The position numbers and the translations under genes were made by a program. From NCBI RefSeq assembly GCF_013315695.1, contig NZ_CP054353.1: a stretch of DNA of 64,000 bases. One strand, given 5' to 3'. The notes below the pieces were generated by a model that was not told the DNA's origin, made no database searches, and was given only the letters and a program-made list of their open reading frames with translations. Source of the DNA: Escherichia coli. Its GTDB lineage: Bacteria > Pseudomonadota > Gammaproteobacteria > Enterobacterales > Enterobacteriaceae. This document shows positions 30,676 to 56,988 of the stretch, piece after piece (positions within the stretch are counted from its first letter, which is position 1; every line of letters begins with the position of its first letter).

Positions 30676-30927
30676 ATGCGTACAATTAGCTACAGCGAAG
30701 CGCGTCAGAATTTGTCGGCAACAATGATGAAAGCCGTTGAAGATCATGCCCCGATCCTCATTACTCGTCAGAATGGAGAGGCTTGTGTTCTGATGTCACT
30801 CGAAGAATACAACTCGCTGGAAGAGACGGCTTATCTACTGCGTTCCCCCGCTAACGCCCGGAGATTGATGGACTCAATCGATAGCCTGAAATCAGGCAAA
30901 GGAACGGAAAAGGACATTATTGAGTGA
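30676..30927 (+). CDS. yefM: YefM antitoxin (type II TA)
   Basis: ORF 30649..30927; ATG at 30676 gives [31 protein letters not shown] (83 aa). Confidence 0.92.
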
Positions 30928-31178
30928 AACTAATCTGGTCTGAGGAATCATGGGATGATTATCTGTACTGGCAGGAAACAGATAAGCGAATTGTTAAAAA
31001 GATCAATGAACTTATCAAAGATACCCGCAGAACACCATTTGAAGGTAAGGGGAAACCAGAACCCCTGAAACATAATTTGTCAGGTTTCTGGTCCCGACGC
31101 ATTACAGAGGATCACCGTCTGGTATACGCGGTTACTGATGATTCACTGCTCATTGCAGCATGTCGTTATCATTATTGA
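30924..31178 (+). CDS. yoeB: YoeB toxin (RelE-family mRNA interferase)
   Basis: 84-aa ORF overlapping yefM stop by 4 nt; [22 protein letters not shown]. Confidence 0.92.
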
Positions 31179-39205: not shown

Positions 39206-39724
39206 ATGAGTGTGCCGCAAACAAAAGCTGAACTGCTTTTAGCTATTGATAAAAATTTTAGTAAATTAATTAGTTACCTCAACACAATCCCACCAGAAAT
39301 TACTTCAGATAAATCAATGGACGGACACGCCAAAGGAACGGAGATGAGTGTTCGTGATCTCGTTTCGTATCTGCTTGGATGGAATGCTCTTGTTGTAAAG
39401 TGGATCGCTTCTGATGCTAAAGGTCTGCCTGTCGATTTTCCGGAAACTGGCTATAAATGGAATCAGCTTGGCCTTCTTGCTCAAAAATTTTACTCAGATT
39501 ACAGTGAGTTAAGTTATGAGTTGTTAGTAGCTGAACTTCAGACTGTAAAAAATGAGATTGTGAACCTTATTAATGATCGTACCGATGATATTTTGTATGG
39601 AAGACCATGGTACACAAAATGGACGATGGGGAGAATGATCTCATTTAACACATCTTCGCCTTACGCCAACGCTAATGGAAGATTAAGAAAGTGGGCAAAA
39701 AATAATAATATCAGTTTAAAGTAA
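39206..39724 (+). CDS. ClbS/DfsB-like (DUF1706) protein, putative colibactin/DNA-damage self-protection protein; passenger gene of the ISL3 element
   Basis: 172-aa ORF with good RBS (gagaggga); shares with remembered ClbS the motifs HAKGT, VSYLxGW, LGxLAQKFY, YGxPWYxKWTxGRMIxFNTxSPYxNAxGRL. Confidence 0.6.
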   Translation: MSVPQTKAELLLAIDKNFSKLISYLNTIPPEITSDKSMDGHAKGTEMSVRDLVSYLLGWNALVVKWIASDAKGLPVDFPETGYKWNQLGLLAQKFYSDYSELSYELLVAELQTVKNEIVNLINDRTDDILYGRPWYTKWTMGRMISFNTSSPYANANGRLRKWAKNNNISLK

Positions 39725-39742
39725 GCTTCAGAATGAAATTAT

Positions 39743-40963
39743 ATGGACGAAAAATCCCTCTATGCCCATATCCTTAACCTGACTGCACCATGGCAGGTTA
39801 AATCCCTTACCCTCGATGAAAATGCAGGTTCCGTTACTGTTACAGTCGGAATTGCTGAAAATACTCAGTTAACCTGTCCGACCTGCAGGAAATCCTGTTC
39901 TGTTCACGATCACCGACATCGTAAATGGCGCCACCTTGATACCTGCCAGTTCATGACATTAGTAGAAGCCGATGTTCCCCGCGTTATGTGCCCGGAGCAT
40001 GGCTGCCAGACTCTGCCTGTACCGTGGGCAGGTTCCGGCAGTCGGTACACTCTGCTGTTCGAATCGTTCGTGCTCTCATGGCTTAAAATCAGCACCGTTG
40101 ATGCGGTCAGAAAACAACTTAAACTTAGCTGGAATGCCGTTGACGGCATCATGACCCGCGCGGTTAAGCGAGGCCTGTCGCGGATTAAAAAGCCTTTATC
40201 AGTGCGTCATATGAATGTAGACGAAGTCGCCTTTAAAAAAGGGCATAGGTATATAACCGTGGTATCTGATCGCGACGGGCGGGCACTGGCATTAACCGAT
40301 GATCGTGGCACAGAGAGTCTTGCCAGCTATCTCCGTTCGCTTACTGACAGTCAGTTGTTGGCCATCAAAACACTGTCGATGGACATGAATGCGGGCTATA
40401 TAAGAGCAGCGCGTATCCATTTACCCAATGCGGTCGAGAAAATCGCCTTCGATCGCTTCCATGTGGCGAAGCAACTGGGCGAAGTGGTTGATAAAACCCG
40501 CCAGAATGAACATCCGCACCTCCCTGTTGAAAGTCGTCGTCAGGCCAAAGGTACCCGCTTCCTGTGGCAGTACAGCGACAAATGGATGACTGAGTCCCGG
40601 CAGGAAAAGCTGATGTGGTTGCGGGAACAGATGCAACAGACAAGCCAGTGCTGGACACTGAAAGAGCTGGCAAAAAATATCTGGGATCGCCCCTGGAGCA
40701 CAGAACGCAGGAATGACTGGTTGCAGTGGATATCGCTGGCGTCTGAATGTGATGTGCCGATGATGAAAAACGCAGCGAAAACCATTAAAAAACGGTTATA
40801 CGGAATACTGAATGCAATGCGTCATCGCGTCTCGAATGGAAATGCGGAGGCGCTGAACAGCAAGATCAGACTGCTGAGGATAAAGGCCAGGGGATACCGA
40901 AACCGGGAACGCTTTAAACTGGGAGTTATGTTCCACTATGGGAAACTGAATATGGCGTACTGA
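39743..40963 (+). CDS. ISL3-family transposase
   Basis: 406-aa ORF; N-terminal Cys-rich zf-ISL3-like region ([14 protein letters not shown]) followed by a DDE_Tnp_ISL3-like domain; stop codon abuts the right inverted repeat. Confidence 0.85.
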
Positions 40964-44147: not shown

Positions 44148-44342
44148 TTACAGCAACTGGTGAGGGCTGGCATAAGTTGCCGGTGTTTCGGTAGAGTCAC
44201 GGCCATCCACCACGCGGAGTGAATAACCGTTTTCAGCGGCCTTATTAATCAGTTCAGTGATATTAACACCATCAATGTCAACGACAATGTGCCCCATATC
44301 CAGCGCCTGTACGTTAACGCTGTCGGCTTCCAGTGTCATCAT
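44148..44342 (-). CDS. yeeW: CP4-44-type prophage protein YeeW
   Basis: 64-aa ORF overlapping the cbtA stop; matches remembered YeeW. Confidence 0.7.
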   Translation of the reverse strand: MMTLEADSVNVQALDMGHIVVDIDGVNITELINKAAENGYSLRVVDGRDSTETPATYASPHQLL

Positions 44343-44713
44343 TTCGCCTCCGGATACTTACCCAGGGTAATGTTATTTACCGTTCTGTAATTGTCGCGGG
44401 TCATCAGGCCGGTCGCCCTGCGAGCCCGGAGGATATCGATGCTGTTTATTAACTGAGAGCGGGTACAGGCGCTGAATCCCGGCTGGTCGGTACGCACCAG
44501 CGCGTATTTTTCCACGAGAAAGTTCACCGCATCACACAGTGAAATGCCTGCCTCAATATGCTGCTCAATCACACGTTCATCGGCAAACGGTGTGTCATTC
44601 AGTGTGAGGCCGTAGTGCTGGTCCAGCAGTCGGGACAGCAGTATCTGCCAGATTTCAACAGGAGACGGGCGAGAACTGGCCGCCTGCCCGGGTAATACAG
44701 GTAATGTTTTCAT
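44339..44713 (-). CDS. cbtA: CbtA toxin (cytoskeleton-binding toxin, YeeV family)
   Basis: 124-aa ORF MKTLPVLPGQAASSRPSPVEIWQILLSRLLDQHYGLTLNDTPFADE.. matches remembered CbtA. Confidence 0.92.
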   Translation of the reverse strand: MKTLPVLPGQAASSRPSPVEIWQILLSRLLDQHYGLTLNDTPFADERVIEQHIEAGISLCDAVNFLVEKYALVRTDQPGFSACTRSQLINSIDILRARRATGLMTRDNYRTVNNITLGKYPEAK

Positions 44714-44801
44714 ACTGAAGATTTTCCTGATATGCAGATATAAAAATGGGAAAGTGGCGTGGTGAAAACACCAGGCCGTAGCAGAAGGCTATTCTGGAGA
44801 G

Positions 44802-45170
44802 TTAATTTTTCATTTCGGGCGTCGGATAAACAGCCAGATAAACGTAACCACAACTGCTGAGGGTATCGGCTTCACAGGCCAGCCCCTTCGCATACAGCGT
44901 GACGGTATGCTGAGTGCGGGGATTCAGTTCACCGCTGGTGAGCATGAGTTCCAGTTGTTTCATCAGCAGCGGAAAGGCCTGGTCCAGGGGGTACGCATCT
45001 GCATCGCTGGACAGGCCTCTGATACCGGCGCGGTCGGCAAGGTAATGCAACCGGTTACCCTCCTGCACCAGACGTGCCCCGAAACAGGGCGTCACGGTGC
45101 AGGGCAGCCCCCACTAGGGGCGGTCGTGATTGTCGTCGGGAAGTGTTGTCCCGGGGAGTGTGTCTGACAC
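44802..45170 (-). pseudogene. cbeA: CbeA (YeeU) antitoxin gene with premature amber codon at codon 19
   Basis: From GTG 45170: VSDTLPGTTLPDDNHDRP-TAG-WGLPCTVTPCFGARLVQEG..; TAG at 45114..45116 where I remember Trp in K-12; longest ORF 44802..45095 would need internal GTG reinitiation. Confidence 0.8.
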
Positions 45171-45243: not shown

Positions 45244-45465
45244 TCAGTTCAGGGTGACGCTCATCAGTCGGACATACGGGCCAAAACTGTCCTTACGGCG
45301 TTCAGCAAACACGGCCAGCACACCGGGAATATCCTGCACTTCACGACCGGTATACGCTTCAGCACTGCCGTGCCAGCGGTATTTACCGGTACAGAACGGA
45401 AAAAGACGGGATGTCGGATGTTGTTGGTGAATACGCATGGCTTCACCACGGGTGATAATTTTCAT
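45244..45465 (-). CDS. yeeT: DUF987 protein YeeT
   Basis: 73-aa ORF MKIITRGEAMRIHQQHPTSRLFPFCTGKYRWHG.. Confidence 0.85.
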   Translation of the reverse strand: MKIITRGEAMRIHQQHPTSRLFPFCTGKYRWHGSAEAYTGREVQDIPGVLAVFAERRKDSFGPYVRLMSVTLN

Positions 45466-46496: not shown

Positions 46497-47747
<1,251 letters not shown>

Positions 47748-47824: not shown

Positions 47825-49250
47825 AAAACGGAGTTGAAAAAATGGTGTCTGAAAGAAGGTACCATCATTGCGATGACAAACACTTTGGCGTGGATAATGT
47901 AATTAATTGCTGAAATTGACCGTATATGCGGTAAGACTCATATCAGTATCAGGTCCGGTTAATTGCTGATACTGACATAAACTTTTTACAAAAGGATGAA
48001 TGCAGAAGGTTACTCTAATGGCCAGAGTGATGACAATGATGGTCAGACGTTGACCTGCAGAAACTGCATTTTAATTGGTCTATAAAGTCTGCAAGAGGAA
48101 TCAGGGTCAGATCAGTGAGTCTTATCGCGGCCCGAAGCTATGACTGAAAGAAGGCTGGATACAGAATTGCAACAATTTGGCAATGTCAGAACACAGAAGC
48201 TTTGCAAGCAGGTGAAAGGTTATGTCTAGAAAAAGGAGTATATCAGAATACATCTACTGATGTACAAAACACAACAATAGCTTCATGATATATAAATACG
48301 TGATGACGAGTGGTACTCCGCATGGTTATTTAACTTCTCAGCACCACTAATGATCCTGAGCAACTTCGTATTTGGGCCATTGCCATGGAGTAGAAAGCTG
48401 TGTCTGAGAATGCAGAATTTGAGAAAAGAATTCGCTTTCTTGGAGAGCTTCTGAAAATGGCACGCTAACAACGCTTTGTTAAAAAATGTGAATCACTTGC
48501 CGAGGCTGCATTTTCTATTCGAGGAGAATGTTGACGTAGATATTACAGAAATCTCAGCGCATCAGGATAAACTGCTACCTTAGGTCAACCACCAAAAGAA
48601 AATACAATACGTCCAGTTTGTATGCCTTTAATAACACATCTTTTAAATGTTGAAGAATTATCCCGCCTGCTGAAGAACGTTGCTCTGAGTGTGATAAACC
48701 TTTTTATTCTTGATGATGTCAGCGAGAAGATGGAATATATCCCCGACTGGGTCGTGGTTACCCGGTTAAACATCTGGTGGCGCTAATAAATCTGGCAAGT
48801 CACATTCTGTTGAATGCTGTGACAGTGCCTTACCGAGAGAGCGAAATTGTGGTGTTCTAGTGCATAGTCGCCACCATTCCGGATAATTTTATTGCGTTGT
48901 TTTACAACTTCTTTTACAGCGCAGATCTGTCGCTGACGTTGAATCAATAGCCTGGATTTCAGAACACAATGCCCGTTTGCTGGTTGGTCCGGCAGTAGCA
49001 TTAATTCATTATCTGAATGAAATGTGTCAATCCACAGAAACCGCTGTCAATGACGCATTTTGTCGGACGTTAACACGAGAAAGTCTGGCTATTCCGTAAT
49101 GCCATCTTATTTCGTAATGGATTGAGAATGCTGGATTTTTAATTATATTACGCGCAGTATTAATCGCGTAAATGTTTTGCGGTCAGCAACGGTGGGGGAT
49201 CCATTGCTCTGTTCAATGAATACCATCATACATTTGAATCAGGAGTCGGT

Positions 49251-52679: not shown

Positions 52680-52755
52680 TGGCTCCTCTGACTGGACTCG
52701 AACCAGTGACATACGGATTAACAGTCCGCCGTTCTACCGACTGAACTACAGAGGA
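52680..52755 (-). tRNA. asnV: tRNA-Asn (GUU)
   Basis: 76-nt reverse complement of TCCTCTGTAGTTCAGTCGGTAGAACGGCGGACTGTTAATCCGTATGTCACTGGTTCGAGTCCAGTCAGAGGAGCCA; anticodon loop CUGUUAA; symbol by K-12 synteny. Confidence 0.95.
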
Positions 52756-55088: not shown

Positions 55089-55164
55089 TGGCTCCTCTGA
55101 CTGGACTCGAACCAGTGACATACGGATTAACAGTCCGCCGTTCTACCGACTGAACTACAGAGGA
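55089..55164 (-). tRNA. asnU: tRNA-Asn (GUU)
   Basis: Identical 76-nt tRNA-Asn sequence on the minus strand. Confidence 0.95.
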
Positions 55165-56912: not shown

Positions 56913-56988
56913 TCCTCTGTAGTTCAGTCGGTAGAACGGCGGACTGTTAATCCGTATGTCACTGGTTCGAGTCCAGTCAGAGGAGCCA
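56913..56988 (+). tRNA. asnW: tRNA-Asn (GUU)
   Basis: TCCTCTGTAGTTCAGTCGGTAGAACGGCGGACTGTTAATCCGTATGTCACTGGTTCGAGTCCAGTCAGAGGAGCCA on the plus strand. Confidence 0.95.

Follow-up and report, generated by a model that had tools for sequence, protein, structure and literature searches.

A natural Trp19-to-amber allele of the type IV antitoxin gene cbeA in the CP4-44 remnant of Escherichia coli, probably a tolerated methylation-site mutation

In the Escherichia coli DNA analysed here (a stretch of 64,000 nucleotides from contig NZ_CP054353.1, referred to below as the window), the antitoxin gene cbeA of the CP4-44 remnant carried an amber codon in place of Trp19, next to an intact cbtA toxin gene. 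The stop is genuine and is shared by dozens of E. coli genomes; it is not an artefact of this assembly. We consider it likely that this is a natural allele of a type IV antitoxin gene which arose at a methylation hotspot, and that the resulting loss or weakening of the antitoxin is tolerated. Deamination of 5-methylcytosine on the non-coding strand of a CCTGG site would have turned TGG into TAG, and the same hotspot chemistry would have produced this change on several unrelated backgrounds. Translation would end after an 18-residue peptide, perhaps with some restart at GTG26 (97 aa) or de novo binding at TTG41 (82 aa), and a null or strongly hypomorphic effect is the most likely outcome. It would persist through the dispensability of CbeA for viability, the weak transcription of the locus and the paralogous antitoxins elsewhere that can neutralise CbtA. 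Taken as a whole, the case is probably an ordinary one, in which a dispensable antitoxin gene of a decaying prophage remnant carries a nonsense allele that is shared among strains and recurs at a methylation site.

The window region runs his–sbcB–dacD–sbmC–yeeA–tmaR, the CP4-44 remnant and cobUST–ldtA–asnV–nac–cbl–asnU–yeeO–asnW. All features given with coordinates below lie on the minus strand. The cbeA start codon GTG (45170..45168) was preceded by TAAGGA and opened the 5′ fragment of the gene (45114..45170), which by direct reading consisted of 18 sense codons, VSDTLPGTTLPDDNHDRP, followed by TAG at codon 19 (45116..45114). Past the TAG, the same frame continued as WGLPCTVTPCFGARLVQEG and stayed open up to TAA (44804..44802). 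The preliminary description of this DNA had reported the amber and the frame open to the normal C-terminus, and both were found at the positions it gave. Directly upstream of cbeA, direct reading and annotation placed yeeT (DUF987, 45244..45465). Downstream, a spacer of 88 nt (44714..44801), holding cbtA's own ribosome-binding site, separated cbeA from cbtA. The toxin gene (44339..44713, ATG 44713 to TGA 44339) was intact with 124 codons, as had also been described, and its product (RefSeq WP_000854814.1) was identical to K-12 CbtA. The cbtA stop overlapped yeeW (DUF5983, 44148..44342) by 4 nt. No second, paralogous cbeA/cbtA copy was found inside the window.

This arrangement is that of the CbeA/CbtA (YeeU/YeeV) pair of K-12 CP4-44. 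The chromosomal site adjoining tmaR(yeeX)-yeeA-sbmC, the order yeeS-yeeT-cbeA-cbtA-yeeW, the 88-nt spacer and the CbtA protein were all the same, and in K-12 the cbeA-cbtA spacing is also 88 nt (PMC5371832). The layout of the CbeA/YeeU/YfjZ family was thus present, with a cbtA-family toxin 88 nt downstream and yeeS and yeeT upstream; in P4-like islands the antitoxin lies directly upstream of a CbtA-family toxin (PMC5371832). With the stop read as Trp, the window cbeA frame matched K-12 YeeU (PDB 2h28) at E = 2e-78, and residues 18–117 matched positions 1–100 of the 101 of the Pfam model PF06154 (CbeA_antitoxin) at E = 2.4e-50. A tryptophan at codon 19 had been stated for the K-12 protein, and rightly so: K-12 YeeU reads DRPWWGLPC and the K-12 DNA has TGG, whereas the window has TAG. 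Downstream of the stop, the window carried S54, P61, T88, A97, and E99, where K-12 CbeA has F, H, H, T, and K, respectively. Residue 108 was G in the window and in most other sampled alleles, compared with D in K-12. The window island also differed from K-12 CP4-44 in being shortened by an IS3-family element, with Ag43 and yeeR missing.

The search for the allele used a 41-mer with the A of TAG at its middle, which left no 28-nt megablast seed without that base. The TGG>TAG W19 allele was present in 42 of 5,426 complete E. coli genomes, at one chromosomal place in each. As about 3,672 genomes have the cbeA 5′ region, the allele frequency is about 1%. The carriers came from humans, pigs, poultry, giant panda, river water, soil, and a cave. 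In addition, the exact PGAP product of the window's allele was recorded on 282 contigs, and an 82-aa call of older pipelines that starts at TTG41 was recorded on 254 contigs. Isolate AF3 (NZ_OZ547117.1), a blood isolate with a genome of 5.27 Mb that is not K-12, differed from the window by 7 mismatches and 0 gaps over 39,030 bases and was identical at the cbeA locus. AF3, MSB1_4I, FDAARGOS_1373, H22, and JP538 had an identity of 99.8% or more with the window across 1.5 kb, and all carried the amber. A sequencing or assembly error at 45115, which had been offered as one explanation, is therefore extremely improbable and was rejected: 42 complete genomes, sequenced independently in many laboratories and on many platforms, have the same base, and five of them are near-identical to the window. 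The comparison with cbeA alleles of other strains, also suggested at that stage, gave TGG in K-12 and D8 and TAG in these 42 genomes. The other suggestion, a recent inactivation, held in part. The change is a point mutation of the loss type, and the window differed from D8 at 2 sites over 2.5 kb, but the allele is not private and was found on at least three backgrounds.

Around this codon, intact alleles have CGC CCC TGG, and the CCTGG (gene positions 53–57) is a Dcm site. In the window, G56>A had turned it into CCTAG (45114..45118); the partner of the altered base on the other strand is the inner C, the target of methylation. In CCWGG sites, Dcm acts on the second C; when the 5-methylcytosine is deaminated, a T:G mismatch arises, which very-short-patch repair corrects only in part (PMC2715241, PMC3527292). 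If this happened to the inner C of the non-coding strand, CCTGG would become CCTAG, which is exactly the TGG>TAG change. The dcm gene itself does not lie in the window. Control changes were counted by searches built like the W19 41-mer in the same 5,426 complete genomes. W19 TAG, a Dcm-type change, was found in 42 genomes, and W19 TGA, which needs a G>A at the neighbouring G that does not lie opposite a methylated C, was found in none (0 genomes). The other in-frame Dcm amber, Q64 CAG>TAG, was found in 20 genomes; its CCAGG site (44978..44982) was intact in the window. These three counts fit a hotspot. Two further counts do not fit neatly. The synonymous P18 CCC>CCT change, which is Dcm-type at the same site on the other strand, was found in 1 genome, and W20 TAG, which is not Dcm-type, was found in 25 genomes. 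Q64 CAA was unusable as a synonymous benchmark, since the paralogues natively carry CAA at this codon. Two W20-amber genomes (L73 and IMT16316) were read, and both were one base from the TGG strain CP53 over 1.4 kb and shared its 1-nt deletion that already kills cbtA. These two genomes appear to belong to a single lineage, with decay of the toxin first and of the antitoxin later. The W20 count indicates that an early stop can become common without a hotspot. In our reading, the Dcm site would explain the repeated appearance of the W19 amber, with deamination as its putative origin.

The genetic backgrounds were read at the CP4-44 locus, in 17 genomes with the W19 amber and, for comparison, in 5 with TGG. 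The same G>A was present on two distinct CP4-44 cbeA haplotypes. The K-12-like haplotype had F54, H61, H88, T97, and K99 (short form WP_044863316.1), and the D8-like haplotype, which includes the window, AF3, and MS 21-1, had S54, P61, N/T88, A97, and E99. Each haplotype had an intact TGG twin, with 2 sites separating D8 from the window and 5 sites separating W5-6 from E2 over 2.5 kb. Within cbeA, the nearest intact allele (D8) differed from that of the window by two bases, TGG>TAG and AAT>ACT. The sites nearest the stop that separate the two haplotypes lie at −24 and +161 from the start, and all four allele combinations were found. A third background was given by JNEC-KY202, FHI_NMBU_11, and CFIAFB20190167, in which the codon-19 TAG lies in a paralogous island; there, the toxin is another one (WP_001094432.1), the spacer has 46 nt, the antitoxin ends in a different C-terminus, and the downstream genes are full-length. 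Here the nearest distinguishing sites are at +29 and +120. Judged from these sequences, the amber arose on or moved onto at least three backgrounds. In eight genomes the 2.5-kb island was identical although their dacD and sbmC alleles differed; recombination is thus active at the locus, and part of the spread is transfer rather than new mutation.

A single origin, in which the amber arose once and was copied to the other haplotype and to the paralogous island by short gene conversion, is rather unlikely. It would agree with the near-identity of the first ~120 nt of cbeA among haplotypes and paralogues, with the mosaic island and its identical segments on different core backgrounds, and with a 5-site patch in cbtA that resembles a conversion tract. 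The informative sites, however, set narrow limits, as a transfer of the stop needs both breakpoints within 185 bp between the two haplotypes and within 91 bp for the paralogue. An amber/wild-type heteroduplex at a Dcm site is also a substrate of Vsr and is repaired toward wild type, which counts against spread by conversion and could, in addition, make TGG "twins" by reversion. It is the T:G mismatch at the amber site that very-short-patch repair restores to the CCWGG wild type (PMC2715241). A known hotspot is a simpler route than a single origin followed by conversion, although at least three origins and very short conversion tracts are inseparable here. The genome counts themselves mostly mirror descent and hitch-hiking, and this bears on a second alternative, that early truncation or loss of CbeA was positively selected (for example through altered biofilm behaviour) and not merely tolerated. 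At the level of genomes, 42 for the W19 amber and 1 for the synonymous CCC>CCT twin at the same Dcm site is contrary to equal mutation and neutrality; counted as events, the comparison is about 3 or more against 1 and is not significant. The occurrence of the W19 amber on at least three backgrounds, the W20 amber as another early stop in 25 genomes, and the 2- to 4-fold rise in early biofilm on antitoxin deletion in K-12 (PMC5371832) would also agree with selection. Against it, the sampled W20-amber carriers had an already frameshifted toxin and were one base from a TGG strain, as expected under neutral decay, the absence of W19 TGA speaks for biased mutation and not for selection of a stop at codon 19, and the allele is rare overall (42 among about 3,672 genomes with the region). 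We regard such selection as improbable. The same low standing is given to a more specific form of this idea, that the W19 and W20 stops are a recurrently selected down-tuning or remodelling of the antitoxin with the toxin kept, acting through an altered restart protein or through a CbeA loss that shifts FtsZ/MreB and biofilm, with the Dcm site at codons 18–19 as a high-rate switch.

The state of the toxin in the genomes agrees with a tolerated mutation. The toxin was intact in 14 of the 17 sampled CP4-44 W19-amber carriers and in all three of the paralogous-island carriers. The three toxin-defective carriers shared the same cbtA deletion, which was also found with TGG. In two different islands, Q64 amber alleles, flagged by PGAP as 'internal stop', were found next to an intact toxin gene; the presence of an intact toxin is thus no sign that the antitoxin works. 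The closest genomes held 3 to 4 similar loci each. In K-12, strains with the Keio cbeA deletion or the triple cbeA yafW yfjZ deletion showed unaltered growth and viability, the toxicity of CbtA is blocked by YafW and by YfjZ, and the three loci show low transcription compared with relBE, with the operon regulated by neither partner (PMC5371832). The sole phenotype reported for antitoxin deletion in K-12, of one or of all three, was the increase in early biofilm mentioned above (PMC5371832). CbeA acts by stabilising FtsZ/MreB assemblies, whose bundling it promotes, and does not bind CbtA, as described for the full-length K-12 protein (PMC5624674). As the system is type IV and antitoxin deletions leave the growth of K-12 unchanged, a dead antitoxin beside a live toxin is no paradox. 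We infer tolerance in the present strain; dispensability is known from K-12.

The sequence past the stop contains three candidate starts. CTG22 (45105..45107), the start chosen by PGAP, had a poor signal, with an anti-SD duplex energy of −2.7 kcal/mol compared with −5.9 kcal/mol for the native start. GTG26 (45095..45093) lies 18 nt past the stop and opens a frame to the TAA (44802..45095) for a candidate 97-aa restart product. Upstream of it at a spacing of 12 nt is a GGGGG Shine-Dalgarno-like motif (45108..45112, codons W20-G21), with a duplex energy of −8.4 kcal/mol. TTG41 (45048..45050), the candidate start of an 82-aa product and the start used in the older annotations (P0004, 254 contigs), lies 63 nt past the stop. 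It follows a consensus AGGAGG motif (45059..45064) at a spacing of 8 nt, which encodes Q37-E38 of the conserved VQEG and has the strongest signal of the transcript (−10.8 kcal/mol). Among all 20-mers in the transcript, the values for GTG26 and TTG41 correspond to the 5th and 1st percentiles, respectively.

Conservation was read in 24 family members from Escherichia, Enterobacter, Citrobacter, Salmonella, Yersinia, Hafnia, and Erwinia. W20-G21-L22 did not vary, P18 and W19 had a conservation of 90% or more, and residues 1–17 were variable. The GTG26 product is without W20-G21-L22, and the TTG41 product is also without the conserved FGARLVQEG block. The whole domain is thus not encoded in one uninterrupted frame in the window, as TAG stands at codon 19 and a restart at codon 22, 26, or 41 drops invariant residues; the gene belongs to the family as an interrupted allele and not as an intact member. 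No NCBIfam family was found for the 122-, 97-, or 82-aa form, and a literature search on truncated CbeA gave nothing relevant. The predicted structure of full-length CbeA, from the 24-sequence alignment, was poor (mean pLDDT 47) and gives no basis for judging the N-terminus. A crude check for C-rich, G-poor stretches after the stop that might load Rho showed nothing striking. The frame downstream of the stop was intact in 17 of 17 CP4-44-locus carriers read and in 3 of 3 paralogue carriers. Carriers within a haplotype were identical or 1–2 sites apart, which is too little divergence for dN/dS on the downstream frame.

Two alternatives would leave the pair working in spite of the stop. In one of them, an N-terminally shortened CbeA, made by reinitiation at GTG26 or by initiation at TTG41, still protects FtsZ/MreB. 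The preliminary description had raised reinitiation at the GTG at 45095; the Shine-Dalgarno-like motif and the short distance past the stop agree with it, whereas the candidate product lacks the family-invariant W20-G21-L22. The GTG26 and TTG41 signals are stronger than that of the native start, the downstream frame was intact in all sampled carriers and the toxin in most of them, and there is little conservation over the first 17 residues. In lacI and T4 rIIB, translation is known to restart after early nonsense codons, and cbeA resembles these genes in its sequence signals, namely an in-frame GTG with a Shine-Dalgarno-like motif soon after the stop and a TTG with a consensus one. However, the Pfam domain begins at residue 18, and W20-G21-L22, invariant across genera, is absent from the GTG26 product. 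The motifs simply follow from the conserved WG and QEG codons and also stand in intact alleles, and for this reason they give no evidence of adaptation. The Q64 amber, an unambiguous mid-gene null, also coexists with intact toxins, and divergence after the mutation is too small to test purifying selection on a short form. A fully functional short form is possible but would be less likely than a null or hypomorph, and we place this alternative as unlikely, if somewhat above a single origin. The other alternative is readthrough, in which an amber suppressor tRNA (supE-like) or high natural UAG readthrough restores full-length CbeA. A check for supE-type suppressors, proposed with the preliminary description, found none in the window, whose only tRNA genes are three tRNA-Asn. 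The supE44 anticodon change was present in 157 genomes; the 60 matches listed were K-12 laboratory derivatives or constructs, and no amber carrier was among these 60 of 157. The window's clone, that of AF3, is not K-12. Readthrough is accordingly very improbable.

The early stop in cbeA resembles several known cases. The lacI and lambda cI amber hotspots are the classical nonsense hotspots at 5-methylcytosine (Dcm) sites, restrained by Vsr repair. The cbeA allele would share with them the ancestral CCTGG, the transition by deamination of the inner C, the creation of an amber codon, and the recurrence across backgrounds. It differs in being standing natural variation in wild genomes, whereas those hotspots came from laboratory mutant screens, and in going from Trp to amber via the opposite strand, whereas those went from Gln to amber. 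Degenerating toxin-antitoxin modules of cryptic prophages are similar in that related genomes carry the Q64 amber, the W20 amber, or the 1-nt cbtA deletion; unlike these modules, the window allele has no pseudogene flag in RefSeq. The locus offers a clean natural case of a nonsense mutation that probably recurs at a methylation site in wild E. coli, and it indicates that a chromosomal type IV antitoxin can be lost with its toxin intact, consistent with the laboratory deletion data. The connection with a Dcm site, the repeated appearance of the amber in paralogous islands, and its masking by annotation are mildly new; the case carries little weight for biology at large and opens no long-standing question. 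Antitoxin nonsense alleles are common, with 42, 25, and 20 genomes for W19, W20, and Q64, respectively, and annotation treated the W19 and Q64 alleles differently. The Q64 amber was flagged as a pseudogene, and the W19-amber cbeA was restarted by PGAP at CTG22 and recorded, as in AF3, as an intact 101-aa 'YeeU family antitoxin' (WP_128857213.1). This restart hides the W19 amber, so that annotation-based surveys of "intact" toxin-antitoxin pairs miscount such loci.

A single 1-nt deletion, shared by six of the compared cbeA-cbtA loci (L005, L008, L011, L018, L029, and L030), killed cbtA at +678 from the cbeA start, near cbtA codon 74. The haplotype family with this deletion included the intact antitoxin allele TGG (CP53), the W19-amber allele with TAG at codon 19 (E2, Z1323CEC0010, and KGu016), and the W20-amber allele with TAG at codon 20 (L73 and IMT16316). 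As the deletion was common to all three alleles, the sequence comparison places loss of the toxin before at least some of the antitoxin losses.

The 3' part of cbtA also showed five substitutions relative to K-12, clustered in 28 bp (+730..+757). The cluster was present in L003, L004, L006, L007, L009, L010, L013-L016, and L021, and among these L004 and L010 had an extra change at +491. The CbtA protein accession was unchanged in all the loci of this group without the +491 change, so the five changes are synonymous. The appearance of the cluster suggests a short tract of gene conversion, with a paralogue as the donor.

PGAP gave no pseudogene flag to the W19-amber or W20-amber cbeA. The gene was restarted at CTG codon 22 (window 45105..45107, minus strand; L001 3494..3799), a start with a poor ribosome-binding signal, and was labeled as an intact 'YeeU family antitoxin'. 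In contrast, the Q64-amber cbeA, with TAG at codon 64, was marked 'internal stop'. Because of this restart, intact toxin-antitoxin pair tallies taken from RefSeq will be inflated.

The W19-W20 codons of intact cbeA alleles read CCTGGTGG (the ancestral form of window 45111..45118), which matches the Chi sequence GCTGGTGG at 7 of 8 positions and is changed to CCTAGTGG by the W19 amber mutation. This resemblance to Chi is probably coincidental.

The CP4-44 remnant terminates at an IS3-family element with a two-frame transposase (window 46497..47710), which adjoins the antirestriction gene. This remnant lacks Ag43/flu and yeeR, both of which K-12 has. Beyond the element are two fragments, one of IS4 and one of a cobalamin gene, placed at about 48759..49099 by offset from AF3, the near-identical blood isolate.

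Elsewhere in the window, at ~39206..40963 (offset from AF3 positions 349235..350992), dacD and sbmC, which are neighbors in K-12, are separated by an ISEc53 transposase and a four-helix-bundle gene of the ClbS/DfsB family, to which the colibactin self-resistance protein belongs. MS 21-1 has the same insert. Three tRNA-Asn genes are located at the asnV, asnU, and asnW positions (window 52680..52755, 55089..55164, and 56913..56988), and the AF3 annotation showed no island at these positions in this lineage. A second toxin-antitoxin pair, the type II yefM-yoeB, is adjacent to the his operon at window ~30676..31178 (offset from AF3 positions 340705..341207); it is unrelated to cbeA-cbtA and intact according to the AF3 annotation.
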